Shown: positions 1 through 39,324, counted from the first letter of the stretch. The stretch is 39,324 nt of DNA from a virus (IMGVR_UViG_2703718821_000011), one strand, 5' to 3'. The notes: a model not told the origin generated them from the sequence alone. Translations and numbers: made by a program.

Positions 1-305
1 TCATGATGAACCTCGGCTAACAAAGTGTTCGCAAGCAGCTGCAAAGCGATCCAGTCCGGTCGTCACCTCTTCTTCGCTGACATTGAGCGCAGGCGCAAAA
101 CGCACCACGTTGCCACCCGCAATCAGTACCATCACGCCTGCTTTCGCCGCTTCCTGAGAGATCTGTTTCGCTTGCCCGGCGTAATCGGCATTCAGTACAC
201 AGCCAATCAGCAAACCTAAGCCGCGAACTTCACTGAACAAACCATAGCGGTGATTAATAGTATTAAGACGCTCAACAAACCAGTCGTGACGCTGTTTAAC
301 GCCAT
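1..305 (-). CDS. astC: Host succinylornithine/acetylornithine aminotransferase (AstC/ArgD family), 3' terminal ~100 codons only; gene interrupted by prophage insertion
   Basis: Minus-strand translation ends ...[96 protein letters not shown], which I recognise as the AstC C-terminus; similarity stops abruptly near nt 305 where phage-end sequence begins. Exact junction uncertain by a few bp. Confidence 0.7.
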
Positions 306-436
306 TAATATAGCGCGGCGATTTTTTTGATACCGATTTGCATTTCATTTGATACTGCTGAAAAACGCCGATACGCAACTTATTTGATACTAAATCGGCG
401 CTTTTCTTTTGAGTTTTAGAATGAGTTTTTAAGCGC
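306..436. repeat. Prophage right-end terminal region with three direct TTTGATAC repeats, candidate transposase end-binding sites
   Basis: TTTGATAC at ~326-333, ~348-355 and ~383-390, between the host junction and the mom stop codon; Mu-family ends carry multiple spaced transposase binding sites. Terminal dinucleotide could not be fixed. Confidence 0.45.
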
Positions 437-1369: not shown

Positions 1370-1550
1370 GCAATCGATCGACAAAAACGATCGATTCGAT
1401 TTGTTTAATTGATACAACAAATAGATTGAAAAGTCATCAACAATGATTCAGGTAGGTGATTATTTACTTAAAGAAAACGAAGAGTTAGGTGGTGAAAACG
1501 ATCATAAAATGATCATTTTATTGACTTTTTATATAGTGAAGGTAGGATCG
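1370..1550 (-). promoter_or_regulatory. Candidate mom operon control region: GATC (Dam) site cluster including a perfect 9-bp inverted repeat AATCGATCG-N7-CGATCGATT
   Basis: GATC at ~1376, ~1389, ~1500, ~1511, ~1546 in an AT-rich stretch just upstream of com. In Mu, Pmom is controlled by Dam methylation of upstream GATC sites (OxyR binding) and by C protein. Confidence 0.45.
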
Positions 1551-1914
1551 CGCGTATATGTAGTATGTTTCAAATCAATGGGATACTACATACATAAAGA
1601 GCGACCCAGATAGCGCGAACTATTCTGGGCCGATTTAGACAATTTTGCATCAATGCTTTACTTCGAGCTCGTGGCGTATCCTATGATATTCCCCAGTCTC
1701 CTGTAAAGCAGAGATGCATAAAAAGGAGATCTTTATCATGGATGAAAGAGCCTGTTTGCCCTGCCTGTAAGACTCCCTTACAGCTCATCTATCGCCGTTC
1801 TCGATCTCAAAATGGCAAGACATACAAACCCAAAAATGCTTCCTGTTTCAGGATGCTGATATGTCCTGCCTGTTCTCCCAGGAGGGAAAATACACAAAAC
1901 GTGCATTAACAAAC

Positions 1915-1947: not shown

Positions 1948-2193
1948 TTACATCATAGTACCGTCAGTTCCGGGCTGAACCGGCTCTGGTTGCTCTACGG
2001 GTTGAGGATCATTTTCCGTGCTGTTTTCAGCCGGAGAACGGCCAACCATTCGGGCCAGCACTTCATCAACATATGCGTCGATTTGTGCCTCAAAATCCTT
2101 GCGAACCTGCGCCTTCAGCACGCGGTTCACTTCTTCAGAATAAAGTGCCTGTTTGACAAGCTCTTCAGTAACCGTGCCTTTAATCTCTGGCAT
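1948..2193 (-). CDS. Hypothetical acidic 81-aa protein (cargo)
   Basis: Protein-like composition (MPEIKGTVTEELVKQALYSEEVNRVLKAQVRK...), AAGGAG Shine-Dalgarno about 7 nt upstream of the ATG. No recognisable domain. Confidence 0.55.
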   Translation of the reverse strand: MPEIKGTVTEELVKQALYSEEVNRVLKAQVRKDFEAQIDAYVDEVLARMVGRSPAENSTENDPQPVEQPEPVQPGTDGTMM

Positions 2194-2228
2194 GAATATT
2201 CTCCTTTTGCAGGTATATTGCCCCGTTA

Positions 2229-2411
2229 TCAGAGCGGGGTCGGGTCGTTTGGGGATGACGGTGCCTGTGCTGTTTTACTGAGTTTTTCAGCTGCCGCATC
2301 ATCAATTTTACGGCGAATATAATTTCTGATGACCTTATAACCGCCGCTCACCAGATATAACGCACTGACCACAGCGCAGAAATAAAGCAGCATTGTATGA
2401 ACGAATGTCAT
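2229..2411 (-). CDS. Hypothetical 60-aa small membrane protein (one N-terminal TM helix, basic juxtamembrane segment)
   Basis: MTFVHTMLLYFCAVVSALYLVSGGYKVIRNYIRRK...; AAGG-type RBS upstream; located in the cargo block. Confidence 0.5.
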   Translation of the reverse strand: MTFVHTMLLYFCAVVSALYLVSGGYKVIRNYIRRKIDDAAAEKLSKTAQAPSSPNDPTPL

Positions 2412-2523
2412 ATAACCTTACCTTTGATATTGACTACATAATTCGTTATCGGGTAAAAACATCGAAGCGACTGATAACCACTCCTTCGGGAGTATTTTTA
2501 TTTTCCTTTATGGGTTAGGTAGC

Positions 2524-2559
2524 TCCCGCCAGCCATATCATGACCGGCGGGATTTTTTT
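2524..2559 (+). terminator. Rho-independent terminator on the plus strand (GC stem TCCCGCC...GGCGGGA followed by T7)
   Basis: Stem-loop followed by TTTTTTT on the plus strand only; overlaps the stop codon of the minus-strand esterase gene. It would stop rightward transcription entering the esterase gene antisense. Confidence 0.55.
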
Positions 2560-4567
2560 ATTCTGTTACCGCTTTTTTCACTTCCACCACAATGCTGTCA
2601 ATCAGCACCGGGTAAGTTGCATTTTTGGTGATATCCGTTACGCGGAGTTTGTCCACCGGGAAAGTTCCTACTGGTGACTGCGTCAGGGTAAACGCGGCAC
2701 CATCCTGACCATCAATAACCGGAATAACCTGAAGGCTGTTATTTCCTGCAAAACGGAAGGCCAGCGTATGCCATTCATTATCAAATGCACCAAAGGTTCC
2801 CAGTTTCTGGTTATTTGTTGCCACTTTTGCATTGTGGTACATCACATTCAGGTCTTTTGCGTCTGTCTGGATGTAGAACGATGCCAGCAGATTATTCCCT
2901 GCATCCCCTGTCAGGGTGACACCCTGCGGCAGAGAGGAAACCGGCCAGTAAAGCGCCATGACATACTGGTTTGCCACCAGGTCGCCAGGTACTTTAAAAC
3001 GACAACTGATTAAACCACCATTTTTCAGCAGTTCAGCACCAGTACCGGCATCATGAGCCAGATACCAGGATGATTTACCTGTTTCCTTGGTCAGTTTCAT
3101 TGCCTTACCACCTGTGCCTCCTGCATCACTGATAATTTCAGCTTTACCGCCAGCCGGCTCCCAGCCCTGGGCTTTCAGATTTCCTTCTGACTCACTGACA
3201 CGGTAAGACAGCAGTGTTGTGGTTACTGCTTCAGTTTCAGAAGATGGAACATCGGCTTTTACTGTGGTTCGCCCTGCATGAGTCAGAACAGCCGTGGCCA
3301 GACGGTCAGAAATAATACCCCGGCGCGCCCAGGCACTGAAATGGCTGGCCCGGTCCGCAGATGTCCAGGTAGCGGCACTGTTACGCCACGTTGAGCCGTA
3401 ATAACCAATGGATTCAATATCCGGGTCTTCTGCCGGATTGTTGGTGGGTACATTCACGCCATTTTCATCTGTCATTAATGGAACGAAATGAATGTTTTTA
3501 TCTGTTTTGTTTTTGTAGCCGCCATAGATTGCCTGGTATGCTGGTTCATTTTTCTGTTTCCAGAAATACGTGGTATCGCCACAAATCCACGGAACGCCAG
3601 CAGCACTGCCACCGGTACACTGTTCCGCCTGTTCAGCCAGGTCTGCGCGGAATTTTTCCACCATCGCCAGAAACAGCGCAGAATGCTCCGTCGGCTTCGC
3701 ATCAATATCAAACTCGCCCTGCATCCACACCACAGCAAGCAGGCGGTTTTTCGGGTTCTTCGCCAGTGCCGCTTTTGTCCGGCTGATTAAGTCCTTATAC
3801 AGCGGCTTATCCACACCCCAGCGGGCTGAGTCCTCTGAAGCACCCGTGCTGTCACTGTACGTGCCGTCAGCACCCGCCGTGAATGCAGAACCACCACGGC
3901 AGCAGGGAACCAGCAGAATCCCCGCATCTGCCGGAATAAACGGCAGCAGTTTTTTGGCAATGTGAAGCCCCTGACCCACGGTGCCATATTGCCCTTTAGC
4001 CACATCCGCTTTCGGGTGATTTTTTCCACTCATATCCTGCACATCATGCAGACAGTGGTCGGCCAGAATGATGTCGTTATACTGACAGGCTTTACCTCCC
4101 GGCGTGACTGTACTGCGACGGGCTAACTGCATAATACGCGGTTCGGGGCGGTCATATGTCTCCGGCAGTGGCAGACCTTCACCGTAAGCCATACCGTTTG
4201 ACTGACCAGCAAGAACCACCACGTAATACCAGGAAGGGGAGCTGGAAGCAGTTTCATTTCCTGACGGACGGGTATGTGTTTCAGCATTATCCCAGTCTGA
4301 CGGTTCAGCAGTACCGGCAACATCAGCACTTAACGGAATGACCGCACCAATACCCGCTCCGGTAATTTCCACACTCGGATCACCGGATACTGGCCTTACC
4401 CACAGGCAATCCCGTGTATTAAAACTGATGAGACAGTCAGCAAATGTCATTCCTCCTTTTGTTTCGGCCGGAGGAAAGGGAGCCTCAAGAAATGCCGCTG
4501 TACCACCGGAAACTTTAACAGTAAAGTTTCCGGGCATTGATGATAGTTGAACCCATTTGGACGTCAT
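2558..4567 (-). CDS. Cargo protein: SASA/SGNH-family carbohydrate esterase (sialate O-acetylesterase-like) with an N-terminal ~110-aa domain and a C-terminal ~250-aa beta-rich domain
   Basis: Motifs VVVLAGQSNGMAYG (GQSN block with catalytic Ser) and VVWMQGEFD (WxQGExD block) are hallmarks of the SASA esterase family. No obvious signal peptide. Sits between gin and com-mom, where Mu has no gene. Confidence 0.65.
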   Translation of the reverse strand: MTSKWVQLSSMPGNFTVKVSGGTAAFLEAPFPPAETKGGMTFADCLISFNTRDCLWVRPVSGDPSVEITGAGIGAVIPLSADVAGTAEPSDWDNAETHTRPSGNETASSSPSWYYVVVLAGQSNGMAYGEGLPLPETYDRPEPRIMQLARRSTVTPGGKACQYNDIILADHCLHDVQDMSGKNHPKADVAKGQYGTVGQGLHIAKKLLPFIPADAGILLVPCCRGGSAFTAGADGTYSDSTGASEDSARWGVDKPLYKDLISRTKAALAKNPKNRLLAVVWMQGEFDIDAKPTEHSALFLAMVEKFRADLAEQAEQCTGGSAAGVPWICGDTTYFWKQKNEPAYQAIYGGYKNKTDKNIHFVPLMTDENGVNVPTNNPAEDPDIESIGYYGSTWRNSAATWTSADRASHFSAWARRGIISDRLATAVLTHAGRTTVKADVPSSETEAVTTTLLSYRVSESEGNLKAQGWEPAGGKAEIISDAGGTGGKAMKLTKETGKSSWYLAHDAGTGAELLKNGGLISCRFKVPGDLVANQYVMALYWPVSSLPQGVTLTGDAGNNLLASFYIQTDAKDLNVMYHNAKVATNNQKLGTFGAFDNEWHTLAFRFAGNNSLQVIPVIDGQDGAAFTLTQSPVGTFPVDKLRVTDITKNATYPVLIDSIVVEVKKAVTE

Positions 4568-4666: not shown

Positions 4667-5227
4667 TTATTTTTCCGAAACGCTCGCAGGATAATAACGA
4701 TAAAGGGTTGAAAGACCGATATCAAAAATAAGTGCCACCTGTCTTCGACTGACACCCCCGGCCAGTAAACGCCCGACCTGCTCGTATTGTTCCTGCGTGA
4801 GACGGCGGGGTCTGCCGCCGGTTCGTCCCCTTTCACGGGCAGCTGCAAGACCAGCCCGTGTCCGTTCGACAATTAATTCACGCTCCATTTCTGCCAGCGC
4901 ACCCATTATGTGAAAAAAGAAGCGCCCCATGGGGGTTGACGTATCAATGTTGTCAGTAAGACTACGAAAATTTATCCCCTGTTGCTGTAATTCATCTGTC
5001 AGCGCAACAAGGTGGCGCATACTGCGCCCCAGCCTGTCCAGTTTCCAGACCATCAGCGTGTCACCGGGTTTTAGTTTCTTCAGTGCCCGCTTCAGTCCCG
5101 GCCGCTGTGTCGTTTTACCACTCATTTTGTCTTCAAAAATCTGCTCACATCCTGCACATTCCAGCGCATTTCTTTGTAAACCGGTGTTCTGGTCATTTGT
5201 TGATACGCGTATATAGCCAATCAGCAT
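4667..5227 (-). CDS. gin: Gin/Hin/Pin-family serine recombinase (DNA invertase)
   Basis: MLIGYIRVSTNDQNTGLQ... N-terminal resolvase/invertase catalytic motif, C-terminal HTH; adjacent to the gix-flanked segment and transcribed away from it, as in Mu. Confidence 0.85.
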   Translation of the reverse strand: MLIGYIRVSTNDQNTGLQRNALECAGCEQIFEDKMSGKTTQRPGLKRALKKLKPGDTLMVWKLDRLGRSMRHLVALTDELQQQGINFRSLTDNIDTSTPMGRFFFHIMGALAEMERELIVERTRAGLAAARERGRTGGRPRRLTQEQYEQVGRLLAGGVSRRQVALIFDIGLSTLYRYYPASVSEK

Positions 5228-5281
5228 GTATTTACCTTCCTTAAAAAGAGGTGGAAAAGCCTTTTAAAGTAGATATACGGC

Positions 5282-5307
5282 ATCCCTGAAACCTCGGTTT
5301 ACGGGAT
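5282..5307. other. gix-like crossover site (left), 26-bp imperfect palindrome ATCCCTGAAACCTCGGTTTACGGGAT
   Basis: Core AAACCTCGGTTTAC matches the Mu gix / Salmonella hix consensus as I recall it (TTCCTGTAAACCGAGGTTTTGGATAA, reverse complement). Confidence 0.6.
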
Positions 5308-5661
5308 ACGGTAAACAGGGCCGCGAATGCCCTGCCATCAAACGGTACGGCTGTTGCAGCAAGCAGGCTGGCAAATGCCCGCAGAATCAATGGTGTCGCC
5401 TTTGACGGCACGCAGGATATAAACATTACGTCAGGAATGCCGGAATCAACGGCCAATCAGCGTTATGTTACAGGGGTAAGACTGGGAGCGCAGGCATTAA
5501 GCGGCGGACTGGAATATAATTACTCCCTGTCATCAGGAAATGTGATTACCGGTTTTAAGACTGACGGAGACTGGGAAATGCGTGGTGGTGATGACCGTGT
5601 TTATTACAGACAGATACAATATTGTATTAATGGGCATTGGGTATCCGCTGCAAGTATTTAA
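5290..5661 (+). CDS. Silent alternative tail-fibre C-terminal cassette (S'v-like), promoterless in this orientation; would fuse to the constant part of S after inversion
   Basis: Plus-strand frame open from the stop at ~5287 encodes NLGLRDTVNRAANALPS...INITSGMPESTANQRYV..., paralogous to the expressed S segment NLGLRETVNKAADALPS...INITSGMTQSTADGRYV.... Confidence 0.55.
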   Translation, partial: NLGLRDTVNRAANALPSNGTAVAASRLANARRINGVAFDGTQDINITSGMPESTANQRYVTGVRLGAQALSGGLEYNYSLSSGNVITGFKTDGDWEMRGGDDRVYYRQIQYCINGHWVSAASI

Positions 5662-5731
5662 TTAACGGGGGCATAGCACACAGCAGCCAGCATCTGAAAT
5701 ATGCGTTATTTCAGACAAGCATTGCCTGTAT

Positions 5732-6304
5732 ATGGCGATAGTATTATTCCTGTTTTTATCATTGATTTACATGGTGATGTTTATGCAACTGATTAATGTC
5801 AAACGATATTACCCGAAAGACAAACCCTATGGTGAGGATGTTCAGTATTTCCAGAGTGAGGACGGAAGGGATTTTTATGAATCTATCCCGCTTTTTACAA
5901 AGAAATACAAACTCTGTATTTCGCCTGTAACGGGTATTATCTGCTCTGTTGCTGAAGATGTCTCTGCTTTATATCCGGCAGGTTTTACTGTTGTTGAAGT
6001 GGACGAACTGCCGGAAGGTGTGAATATTGACGGTAACTGGCAGTTTTCTGATGGCCTGATATCAAAGGTGCCGGTAAACTGGAAGACGGTTGCTGAAAAG
6101 CGTCGCTCATCGCTGCTCCAGGAAGCCAACGAAACCGTGGATGACTGGAAAACAGAATTAAAACTGGACATGATTAGCGATGAAAATAAATTACAGCTGA
6201 CGCGCTGGATGGCGTATATCCGACAGCTTAAAGAAATGCACTTTAATGATATTGCCAGTGAGGGGCATTACCAGGCGATTCCCTGGCCGGAAAAACCGGA
6301 ATAA
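5732..6304 (+). CDS. Tail fibre assembly protein (U/U'-type chaperone), inside the invertible segment; likely true start near 5783
   Basis: Follows the silent fibre cassette on the same strand; C-terminus ...IPWPEKPE is typical of tail-fibre assembly proteins; position matches the Mu G-segment U/U' genes. Confidence 0.6.
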   Translation: MAIVLFLFLSLIYMVMFMQLINVKRYYPKDKPYGEDVQYFQSEDGRDFYESIPLFTKKYKLCISPVTGIICSVAEDVSALYPAGFTVVEVDELPEGVNIDGNWQFSDGLISKVPVNWKTVAEKRRSSLLQEANETVDDWKTELKLDMISDENKLQLTRWMAYIRQLKEMHFNDIASEGHYQAIPWPEKPE

Positions 6305-6338
6305 TTCAGAGGGTGCATTCAGCACCCTTTTCTGTGGT

Positions 6339-7250
6339 TTACACTGAACTTACCGTTCTCCAGGTATTATGAATATAAATCTGAACCGGGCGATAATAGA
6401 CCCCACCGATATTGTCCGCAGACCGGGAGCCGGTTTCCTGCACGTTAATACCGGAAAGCATACAACCGGAAGGTGCGCTGTAATTCCATGACATTTCATT
6501 GCCTCCGGGTGAATGATAGCTCTGTGCTCCAAGCTGAACATTCTGTACATACCGGCCATCTGCGGTTGACTGCGTCATTCCTGACGTGATGTTGATATCC
6601 AGCGTTCCGTCAAAAGGAACACCATTAATATTTCTTGGGGTGGCGAGTCTGTTTGCTGCCACGGCGGTTCCAGCCGATGGCAGGGCATCAGCAGCCTTAT
6701 TTACCGTTTCCCGTAAACCGAGGTTATCGATAAAGGTTCCTTTGTCCTGGATATCCGCGCCATTCTGGTCCCTGCGCAGGTAACGGTTATCACCTTCGCT
6801 CCTGCTGTAAACATCCAGATTATTACGGGCGGTTTCCGCATTCTCCAGGTCGGCAAGGTTCTGATCCTTCGCCAGGGCATTAACGTCAGCGGGACCAAGA
6901 CTGTTTTTTGTGGCAAGCGTCCCCAGACCAAGATAACCACGGGCCAGACGCTGGGCTTCCGCACCGGCATCAGCAATTTCTTTCAGGTTGTTTTTCCGGG
7001 AAAAGGCATTCGCAGCGATAATGGCTTTAATGGACAGCGTAAGCTGGTTTAACTGCGCCTTATCCGGCTGAATACTGGCTTCAGCCAGAATATTCAGCAG
7101 TTCGGCCTGGAGAATATTCAGCCAGTCCTGACCAATCCAGCTGATACCTTTTTGTCCGTCACCTTCGGTAAACCAGGTGGTGGTATTACTCTGCGCCGGA
7201 GCCAGTTCAGGCATATTCGCCACGCCGGAATTATTATCAACATGGAACAT
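6339..7250 (-). CDS. Tail fibre protein S (constant part plus currently expressed variable C-terminus)
   Basis: Continuous ORF that crosses the right gix-like site at the FIDNLGL codons; variable part lies inside the invertible segment; located between gp48 and the invertase, as in Mu. Confidence 0.7.
   Translation of the reverse strand: MFHVDNNSGVANMPELAPAQSNTTTWFTEGDGQKGISWIGQDWLNILQAELLNILAEASIQPDKAQLNQLTLSIKAIIAANAFSRKNNLKEIADAGAEAQRLARGYLGLGTLATKNSLGPADVNALAKDQNLADLENAETARNNLDVYSRSEGDNRYLRRDQNGADIQDKGTFIDNLGLRETVNKAADALPSAGTAVAANRLATPRNINGVPFDGTLDINITSGMTQSTADGRYVQNVQLGAQSYHSPGGNEMSWNYSAPSGCMLSGINVQETGSRSADNIGGVYYRPVQIYIHNTWRTVSSV
6708..6733. other. gix-like crossover site (right), TTCCCGTAAACCGAGGTTATCGATAA, inside the S coding sequence
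   Basis: About 21 of 26 positions match the Mu gixL sequence as I recall it; inverted relative to the left site. Confidence 0.6.
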
Positions 7251-7810
7251 TAAATATTCTCCTCTTTGTGACTGTTTGCATACACGTAAATAAACGTCTG
7301 CCATGCAGGCTTATAACGGTTCAGAATACATTCCAGCGCACCACCCTCATAAATACGCAGCGGGGTGAGAATATCATCCAGCACATTCATATTCCGGTAG
7401 CCGGTTTCACTGTTTATCGTGACAATACTGACCCACTGTGAATCCGGTGATGGCTGAATATCTATTTCATAACCAAACTCTGCCGCAAACCGGATATAAA
7501 ATTCACGGTTAAGAGAGGGTTTCATCCGGTATTTATTCCCTGCATAACGCTGACGTTCCTGAATGGTTGCGCCGGTCATATCACATTCCGGTAACCCCAG
7601 ATAACGCTCCCAGTCTTCCAGCAGCAGACGGGATGAATCAGGAAAACGTTCTGCCAGCATCTGGTTACCGGTCCAGGAAACACGCTCCGTGGAATGACTG
7701 AGGCCCAGGCACAAAGCCGCAAGAACGGATGACGGCCGCTTATCCCATGCCAGCCCGTCAGGCAGCAACTGCAACAGGGCGCGCTGATGCGGGGTCAGGG
7801 TTACAGCCAT
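7250..7810 (-). CDS. Mu gp48-like tail/baseplate protein
   Basis: 186-aa ORF between the baseplate J-like gene and the tail-fibre gene; Mu synteny. Confidence 0.6.
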   Translation of the reverse strand: MAVTLTPHQRALLQLLPDGLAWDKRPSSVLAALCLGLSHSTERVSWTGNQMLAERFPDSSRLLLEDWERYLGLPECDMTGATIQERQRYAGNKYRMKPSLNREFYIRFAAEFGYEIDIQPSPDSQWVSIVTINSETGYRNMNVLDDILTPLRIYEGGALECILNRYKPAWQTFIYVYANSHKEENI

Positions 7811-29094: not shown

Positions 29095-29604
29095 TTAACG
29101 GGGAAGTGATTTTTCATACTGCCTGCAAACGGCGTCATACCCCATCAGCGTGCGTTCGGGCATTCCCATCGCGGCCAGCATTTTGCGGCGGTGCCATCGC
29201 TTGAGACGCTCCAGCACATCTGAGGCCAGGGCGGGGTGTTGCTCCAGCCACTGCCAGTTTGCCACACCTTCGCCGCCGTTCTGCGCGGCCGTCTGCGATT
29301 TCACCCAGCGGTTAAGGGCGGTTTCCGCACCATCGGTGATAAAGCCCTGCCGGAGCATCACCTTCCAGATGGCGCGAATTTTGGCGGTCACCGTACCCGG
29401 TTTTAAGGCCCGGTTAACCGGGTTCTGACGCACTTTAAAACCGCGTTTTTTGAAAACATCCAGCACGCGGGATAACTCATCCGGTGACATATCCCGGCAG
29501 CTGGTTTTGCCGGTGGCTGCCAGCAGCGCGGATGTATAAGTCTCATCATCCAGGGCAAGCTCGCGCTTTGCCACATGAATGGCGGATATCAGTTTTCCTC
29601 TCAT
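29095..29604 (-). CDS. gemA: GemA-like protein (Mu gp16 family)
   Basis: LISAIHVAKRELALDDETYTSALLAATGKTSCRDMSPDELSRVLDVFKKRGFK matches the GemA family pattern as I recall it. Confidence 0.65.
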   Translation of the reverse strand: MRGKLISAIHVAKRELALDDETYTSALLAATGKTSCRDMSPDELSRVLDVFKKRGFKVRQNPVNRALKPGTVTAKIRAIWKVMLRQGFITDGAETALNRWVKSQTAAQNGGEGVANWQWLEQHPALASDVLERLKRWHRRKMLAAMGMPERTLMGYDAVCRQYEKSLPR

Positions 29605-38572: not shown

Positions 38573-38739
38573 ACTTCCTCTATTCTAAAAAGTTACCCGC
38601 GCGGATATTCGTGCGGATATCTGTACGGGTAAATAATAGAACAAACAAAAGAACCAGATCAAGGTATTTTGTTCTTTTTATTCTTTGTAGTGTTTTTGTT
38701 ATTAATATCAATAAGATAAATACAAAGGAACCTGAGAGC
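38573..38739. promoter_or_regulatory. Divergent early/repressor promoter-operator region between ner and c
   Basis: TTACCCG...CGGGTAA inverted repeat (~38593-38632) enclosing two GCGGATAT direct repeats; second inverted repeat AAAAGAAC...GTTCTTTT (~38648-38678); AT-rich. Confidence 0.5.
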
Positions 38740-39324
38740 ATGAACATGAAAAACAGTTCTTTTCTCGACGAAGGAAAAGAACCAGTGATCGAACGGATTT
38801 TTCGTCTTGCAGAGCGTTACAAATCGAGAAGTGAGGCGGCTAGAGCATGGGGAATAAACGTTCAGACATTGCAGAACTACTACAAAAGGAGAAACAATCA
38901 GCCGCCACCACAACCAAGAAAGCACCATCTCCAGAACATTGCAGAAAGAGAACATGTATCTATGGAGTGGCTAGTCCATGGTTATGGTGATGAGCCAAGC
39001 ATGAAAAAAGAACCAATTGAACAAGCAAAAAGAACAAAAAAACAAAGAATTGATGATAGTGATTCCATCATCATGAGGGCGTGGGACTCGCTAACTTCAT
39101 CTGAACAAGAGATTTTGTCCAACTTATTGATCAGAAAAGGGGCCGAACTACTAACCGTTTTGCTTGATACAGATATTCAAAAACTGCACTCATTGAGCGG
39201 AGTCAAAAGAGCACTAGCATTGAGTCTACAAGAGTTACCCGATGATACTGTAAGAGAGATTTATGAAGAATGTGAAGCTAAGGTTAATCATTTAAATGTA
39301 ACCCAGAAAAAGGCTAGTGCGTAA
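38740..39324 (+). CDS. c: Mu c-type lysogeny repressor
   Basis: Divergent from ner; C-terminal ...LLIRKGAELLTVLL...QKLHSLSGV...LPDDTVREIY resembles the Mu repressor C-terminal region; AAGGA RBS before the ATG at 38740. Stop codon is the last triplet of the window. Confidence 0.65.
   Translation: MNMKNSSFLDEGKEPVIERIFRLAERYKSRSEAARAWGINVQTLQNYYKRRNNQPPPQPRKHHLQNIAEREHVSMEWLVHGYGDEPSMKKEPIEQAKRTKKQRIDDSDSIIMRAWDSLTSSEQEILSNLLIRKGAELLTVLLDTDIQKLHSLSGVKRALALSLQELPDDTVREIYEECEAKVNHLNVTQKKASA

Follow-up and report, generated by a model that had tools for sequence, protein, structure and literature searches.

Does the stretch of about 1.45 kb beside a gin-like gene in the viral sequence IMGVR_UViG_2703718821_000011 work as an invertible tail-fibre segment, as was predicted from the sequence alone, and how would such a segment serve two fibre tips with the genes it carries? 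The sequence, 39,324 nucleotides (nt) long and called the window here at its full length, is a Mu-type prophage read from its right end inward. By its sequence, the element is an Sp18-like Mu-type prophage of Shiga-toxin-producing Escherichia coli (STEC): prophage Sp18 of E. coli O157:H7 Sakai matches positions 308-38670 of the window at 97.6-97.8% identity (BLAST), with equal gene order and equal orientation of the segment. Based on our findings, we consider the region to be a working Gin/G-segment-type host-specificity switch of this prophage, with a probability of about 0.9. The original prediction had proposed a Gin/gix-type invertible tail-fibre segment, and the invertase, the sites, the codon position shared with Mu S and the occurrence of both orientations all agree with it. 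The kinship with Sp18, whose invertible region has been published, the Fis-type enhancer within the invertase gene and the presence of a single assembly gene were absent from that prediction. The features on which the argument rests are as follows.

4667-5227, minus strand: Gin-family serine DNA invertase, 186 amino acids (aa), recognised by Pfam, identity and structure match
5143-5205, minus strand: putative recombinational enhancer with two Fis-like 15-bp cores, inside the invertase gene
5282-5307: invertase-proximal crossover site (equivalent of Mu gixR), ATCCCTGAAACC-TC-GGTTTACGGGAT, core TC at 5294-5295
5296-5661, plus strand: silent alternative tip Sv', allele A, 121 codons and a stop, frame open from the crossover
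5783-6304, plus strand: the only tail-fibre assembly (chaperone) gene, tfa, 173 aa, Pfam Caudo_TAP (1.9e-18), co-oriented with Sv'
6308-6330, plus strand: terminator-like hairpin that follows the assembly gene and separates the two convergent coding units, with a T-run only on the assembly-gene strand; kept in Sakai Sp18
6339-6719, minus strand: expressed variable tip Sv, 126 codons and a stop
6708-6733: crossover site within the tail-fibre gene (equivalent of Mu gixL), TTCCCGTAAACC-GA-GGTTATCGATAA, core GA at 6720-6721
6720-7250, minus strand: constant part Sc of the tail-fibre gene, about 176 codons, homologous to Mu S; follows a Mu gp48-like gene (7250-7810)

Invertase, crossover sites and exchanged fibre tips

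From these parts we propose the following mechanism. The invertase (4667-5227) would bind the two 26-bp sites and, with the host protein Fis at the enhancer within the invertase gene, would form a complex in which all four strands are cut at the central dinucleotides. One half of this complex would then turn by 180 degrees and the ends would be rejoined, flipping 1,426 bp. Because one site lies within the tail-fibre gene, the flip would replace the last 126 codons (Sv) by 121 others (Sv'), giving fibres of 303 or 298 aa with different last 75-80 residues.

The invertase has the composition of its family, a small serine recombinase (Pfam Resolvase, 1.4e-51) with a C-terminal helix-turn-helix (HTH_7, 1.7e-14), and its catalytic Ser9 is present in the motif YIRVSTNDQ, in keeping with the serine near residue 9-10 that marks the family. 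The gene had been called gin-like, which is borne out by 76% identity of its product to Mu Gin (over 181 aa), next to 70% to P1 Cin and 71% to e14 PinE; the best solved-structure match is also the Gin invertase (3UJ3/4M6F, E=2e-91). Residues K46, R47, K50, Q150, R153 and L154 are present and correspond to positions 47, 48, 51, 151, 154 and 155 of Hin, which are the invertase-specific contact residues for Fis and the enhancer (PMC3798978). The gene reads away from the segment, its start codon lying 55 bp from the edge and 68 nt from the centre of the left site, and the stretch between this site and the gene aligns with that of Mu without gaps.

The enhancer of Fis-dependent invertases consists of two Fis sites 48 bp apart. 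Inside the invertase gene, two Fis-like cores, TATCAACAAATGACC and GTGCAGGATGTGAGC (5191-5205 and 5143-5157), have their centres exactly this distance apart and lie 98 and 146 nt from the site centre, and both cores occur at equal offsets in Mu gin, the offsets and the 48-bp spacing being shared with P1 as well. An enhancer has been described to lie about 100 bp from the nearer crossover site (PMC3798978). The candidate stretch is equivalent to coding nt 19-90, where the P1 record places the Cin enhancer, and it is nearly invariant across the window invertase gene, gin, cin and pinE. From this likeness we infer both enhancer function and Fis dependence.

The two crossover sites were found exactly where they had been predicted, at the ends 5282 and 6733 of the segment. 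They are 26 bp long, imperfectly symmetric and mutually inverted, and their central dinucleotides are complementary (TC on the same strand of both), so that they share identical 2-bp cores like those of the Fis/enhancer-dependent invertase family. The 14-mer quoted as their core, AAACCTCGGTTTAC, is exact in the left site and has one mismatch in the right site; it occurs nowhere else in the window with up to 2 mismatches allowed. As had been anticipated, both sites align with known crossover sites, namely the database sequences of Mu gix, P1 cix and e14 pix. We also scored the window with a half-site weight matrix whose 14 source sites all came from other systems (Mu gix, P1 cix and e14 pix as given in database records, and Enterobacter, Erwinia and Morganella sites located beside invertase genes). 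The two sites ranked 1 and 2 among 39,298 positions, scoring 27.9 and 25.5, while the third-best score was 15.2 and the background -36.5 +/- 10.2. No third crossover site, which might flip the assembly gene alone, was detected inside the segment, where the best score was -3.1 against 25-28 for the two sites. Read on the coding strand, the right site encodes F-I-D-N-L-G-L-R-E with the core in a Leu codon, and its Mu equivalent encodes F-I-Q-N-L-G-L-Q-E. The third-best matrix match, CACTTTAAAACCGCGTTTTTTGAAAA at 29431-29456, lies 24 kb away in the early/late regulatory region and is probably due to chance.

The segment has an outer span of 1,452 bp and measures 1,426 bp between the crossover points, which is 47% of the Mu G segment (3,059 bp), so the predicted length of about 1.45 kb and the proportion of about half of Mu G both hold. 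The description of the segment as minimal does not, since an Enterobacter soli prophage of equal design has one of 1,266 bp. Inverted repeats of about 140 bp are present just inside the sites, as predicted; the identity of 80-85% ascribed to them was too high, the measured value being 75.7% over 140 nt (75% over 179 nt). These repeats are the coding sequence of a 47-residue conserved stretch common to both tips (GLR-TVN...INGV-FDGT-DI-ITSGM). The swap of a fibre tip was likewise correctly foreseen, with a size of about 80 aa that fits only its strongly diverged part: the exchanged unit comprises 126 versus 121 codons, whose first 47 residues are conserved and whose last 79 versus 74 residues are 37% identical.

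On the minus strand, the fibre gene extends from 7250 to 6339; its product has 303 aa. Residues 1-190 share 48% identity with Mu S, and likeness to Mu S returns in the final 70 residues, which are similar to its end. The window fibre is shorter than Mu S (504 aa) because it lacks the middle of the Mu protein. One crossover site within the gene thus sets a constant part apart from two alternative variable parts, which are encoded on opposite strands, an arrangement of the Mu G type. Both tip frames had been predicted to be open; they read so here, and the fibre and silent frames are open in every readable locus in both orientations. When fused to Sc, as in genomes of the opposite orientation, Sv' yields a fibre of 298 aa. 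The diverged tip of Sv shares 62% identity with that of Rac-SA53 tail1 and 59% with a P2-like H tip; for the diverged tip of Sv', the values are 57% with the tip of Mu S and 59% with that of PSP3 H. A match to SfMu had first suggested that Sv is like Mu S'; this assignment was dropped, as direct comparison gave only 27% identity to Mu S'.

Comparison with Sakai Sp18 (ECs_4989-ECs_4992) shows that the tips also vary by allele. Its tfa and Sv are the same as in the window. Positions 5470-5791, which cover the end of the silent tip and the spacer that precedes the assembly gene, come in two alleles that look unrelated, A (window) and B (Sakai, locus L003, 44270-44540), between flanks that are about 98-99% identical; the spacer measures 120 nt in the window but 79 nt in Sakai. 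Sv itself also occurs in two alleles, 82% identical to each other. Of further note, two mirror-image open reading frames (ORFs) of 71 and 65 aa (5241-5456, minus strand, and 6586-6783, plus strand) lie antisense to the conserved tip part and span the sites. RefSeq annotates the 71-aa ORF as a hypothetical protein in several genomes; both are most likely by-products of the repeated coding sequence.

Both orientations in complete genomes

A finding of one orientation only had been named in advance as evidence against the prediction. We therefore inverted 5295-6720 in silico and compared a 2,801-nt query, in its original and its flipped form, with 5,426 complete E. coli genomes, counting genomes with query coverage of 80% or more. 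The window orientation was found in 183 complete genomes and the flipped orientation in 27 (87% versus 13%), with junctions exactly at the predicted crossover. In NZ_CP045827 (strain AUSMDU00014361), 2,800 of 2,801 bases match the flipped query.

The position of the exchange can be read from natural markers. The inner half-sites differ by a single base (GGGAT on the left versus GGGAA), and this base is found on the other side in 7 verified inverted loci, the left inner half-site changing from T to A in genomes of the other orientation. The diverged repeat sequence moves wholly with the segment, and the exchange falls within the stretch from the outer half-site to base 12 of the inner one. Taking the swap of the half-site marker and the repeats that stay with the segment together with the pattern of cores described below, the exchange can be located at the core. 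In the population, then, the segment inverts with exchange at the core.

Recombination by serine invertases needs identical cores. Most copies have the core pair TC/GA, and Sakai Sp18 has TT/AA, which are the cores of cix and pix. Short exact-word searches found the AA fibre-gene site in 89 genomes and the TT invertase-proximal site in 26; two of these 26 are inverted, both verified. Each of the matching pairs, TC/GA and TT/AA, thus occurs in both orientations. In about 63 genomes the AA right core is combined with a left core of TC (95NR1) or with TTC, which carries a 1-nt insertion, and all of these stand in the window orientation; this count comes from the identity bands of one search and from four loci that were read, and the genomes are related. 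The insertion (AAACC-TTC-GGTTT) was read in O26 RM10386, O103 RM8385 and 2013C-4225 (L045, L046 and L047, near 6640), and the TC/AA pair in 95NR1 (L012, near 790). Matching cores with both orientations and non-matching cores with one accord with the identical-core rule: core matching is required for inversion in these prophages, and many copies appear, from their sequences, to be locked by core mutations.

Draft contigs from several Enterobacterales genera (L016, L017, L019-L021, L023, L024, L027, L032 and L035) terminate between 66 and 190 nt upstream of a Gin-like invertase gene, in most cases at about 73 nt, where the crossover site lies. These contig ends look like assembly breaks from mixed orientations. 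Separately, the inversion in CP066032, confirmed by long reads (Milman et al. 2023), was considered as a case of an Sp18-like element and rejected, as it concerns an ordinary Mu-type G segment with two assembly genes.

One assembly gene and two tips

In the G-segment layout, each variable part has its own assembly gene (S-U and S'-U'). Here there is one Caudo_TAP gene, and no second tfa-like sequence was found anywhere in the window. The tip co-oriented with this sole gene is Sv', which is expressed in only 13% of the genomes. Among the proteins compared, the assembly protein is closest to the Tfa of Rac-SA53, with 51% identity overall and 62% in the N-terminal domain, which is the fibre-binding part of Tfa according to a review of the Mu structure (PMC9608196). 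The Rac-SA53 tfa gene stands after a fibre with an Sv-like tip. The identity to partners of Sv'-like tips (Mu U and PSP3 G) is only 29%, and that to Mu U and U' is 29-30%.

An alternative way to understand this asymmetry is that inversion serves as an on/off or fibre-quality switch, as only the minority orientation joins the fibre gene and the sole assembly gene in an operon. The co-orientation of the only tfa of the prophage with Sv' would fit such a switch, and so would the observation that comparable tips of the Sv/Sv' kind in Mu, P2-like phages, PSP3 and Rac-SA53 each have a tfa behind them. Sigma-70-type promoter sequences before the assembly gene were not above shuffled controls in number in the window, Sakai Sp18 or the Enterobacter soli locus, and none was conserved among the three. 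However, the orientation without a co-oriented tfa is that of the majority and is also home to the locked variants. Such majority-locked copies were found in O26 and O103 strains at differing insertion sites, and from this we infer that the state without a co-oriented assembly gene is probably infectious. The likeness of the tfa to the Rac-SA53 gene that serves an Sv-like tip further suggests that it serves Sv too and is made in both states. On balance, we regard an on/off or quality switch as unlikely.

If a single chaperone does serve the host-specificity switch that we favour, it could be made in either orientation, from an unrecognised promoter that reads against the late operon, or the majority tip could fold without a chaperone. 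We offer this pair of options only tentatively, and with less than even confidence. Either would, if true, be a design that has not been described for Mu, P1 or e14. Since the one-chaperone layout is also found in the unrelated Enterobacter soli prophage, it suggests a recurrent solution rather than decay.

Still less probable, in our view, is that the window copy is a frozen relic of a family that once inverted. Locked copies do exist in the form of the AA cores paired with TC or TTC, which are known in one orientation only, and 87% of all copies share the orientation of the window. Yet the cores of the window match (TC/GA) and its invertase gene is intact, and the copy with 1 difference in 2,801 bases, which thus encodes the same invertase, has the other orientation. 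Homologous (RecA) recombination between the 179-nt inverted repeats, which do adjoin the sites on their inner side, is hardly credible as the source of the two orientations, since the repeats are only about 75% identical and their diverged sequence remains with the segment, the exchange is confined to the outer half-site through base 12 of the inner half-site, and copies with non-matching 2-bp cores were never found inverted despite intact repeats, to which cores homologous recombination would be indifferent.

Several points nevertheless weigh against a working host-specificity switch. Inversion has been seen in other genomes, and the window copy itself is presumed to be active. The orientations stand at 183:27, where free switching would give about 1:1; the locked variants account for part of this skew, and what remains may be owed to slow switching, to founder effects or to the genomes being related. 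In the majority orientation, no assembly gene lies downstream of the expressed fibre, unlike in Mu, P1 and e14. Finally, the presumed change of host range between the two tips is deduced from their 57-62% identity to known receptor-binding tips, different ones for Sv and Sv'.

The prophage, its relatives and the meaning of the switch

The surroundings of the segment are those of a Mu-type prophage with some additions.

1-306: C-terminus of a host argD/astC-type transaminase
437-1373: mom and com homologues
1948-4567, minus strand: block of non-Mu genes between the invertase gene and com/mom
7250-7810, minus strand: Mu gp48-like gene, followed by Mu-like gp47, gp46 and gp45 and by further tail, head and early genes, all on this strand

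The right end of the prophage (window 1-307) adjoins the 3' part of the transaminase gene, whereas Sp18 is inserted in sorM. The insertion junction of the window was found in 0 of the 5,426 complete E. coli genomes, in a search meant for comparing orientations within the same lineage. The chromosomal insertion site differs in nearly every genome, some copies lying inside other prophages, and the phage family is therefore active. The phage records LC727881 and LC727895 are Shiga toxin (Stx)-converting phages with an inserted copy of an Sp18-like Mu phage, so the Sp18-like phage transposes into other prophages; in RM10386, the prophage copy lies within a portal gene. At 1443-1909 (plus strand), the window has two short ORFs in place of the single gene ECs_4996 of Sakai, and a frameshift is annotated in the AUSMDU00014361 counterpart. 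The block at 1948-4567 codes for a protein of 669 aa, in which a sialate O-acetylesterase-type (SASA) domain is combined with DUF6645, and after it for DUF1378 and DUF826 proteins; it may resemble the NanS-p esterase region of Stx phages. The fibre, the assembly protein and the 669-aa protein are each without a specific model in NCBIfam. The last 650 bases (38670-39324) are unlike the left end of Sakai Sp18 and encode a 237-aa protein with faint similarity to DicA-type repressors, which suggests an immunity region different from that of Sp18.

The closest known system is the Mu G segment. The layout is equal, with the fibre gene, the segment, an invertase reading away from it and then com and mom, and the sites are near-identical, share the TC/GA core and lie at equal codons of the fibre gene. 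The distance from the site to the invertase start (about 68 nt) and the offsets of the enhancer are also those of Mu. The two differ in that Mu has both U and U' and the window one tfa, and the shorter segment of the window is partly due to this single assembly gene. Mu also has identical 34-bp repeats, whereas the outer half-sites of the window differ from each other, and there is nothing between gin and com in Mu, where the window has the block with the esterase-domain protein.

The P segment of e14 (PinE, E. coli K-12) and the C segment of P1 (Cin) are likewise tail-fibre tip switches, with invertases 70-71% identical to that of the window and with the same type of site; their cores are TT/AA, as in Sakai Sp18 and unlike the TC/GA of the window. 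The e14 segment has 1,827 bp and two tfa genes. That of P1 has 4,256 bp and also two tfa genes; there, cin points towards the segment, with its 3' end at cixL. The Enterobacter soli P2-like prophage (L018, 5045-7573) is the nearest counterpart in design: Sc-Sv is followed by a convergent tfa and Sv', the only tfa, and then by an invertase 68 nt past the site. It belongs to another phage lineage, with a core of TT/AA, a P2 H-type fibre N-terminus and a TfaP-like tfa. The deposited assembly of this prophage shows the orientation in which the expressed fibre is not followed by the assembly gene.

By its sequence, then, the system would rank with the Gin/Hin/Cin/Pin family in every respect, with inversion seen in the population besides, and its layout departs from that of the G segment only in the pairing of assembly genes. 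Fibre switches of the Gin type are textbook material, so the kind of system is already known. The element itself was noted in 2009, as an "invertible host-specificity region" of Sp18 (Asadulghani et al. 2009, PMC2669165). In the literature searched (subscription journals not covered), no description was found of the asymmetry with one chaperone, of the natural core variants and the orientations in which they occur, or of the tip alleles.

For those who work with these genomes, the switch accounts for the truncated "phage tail protein" pseudogene that annotation pipelines report here and for the breaks of short-read assemblies at this spot. The roughly 210 complete STEC genomes form a natural series of cores, TC/GA and TT/AA being matched and TC/AA and TTC/AA non-matching, in which the identical-core rule can be seen in the wild. 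Only the layout with a single chaperone may hold a new lesson, namely on how fibre tips and chaperones are paired.

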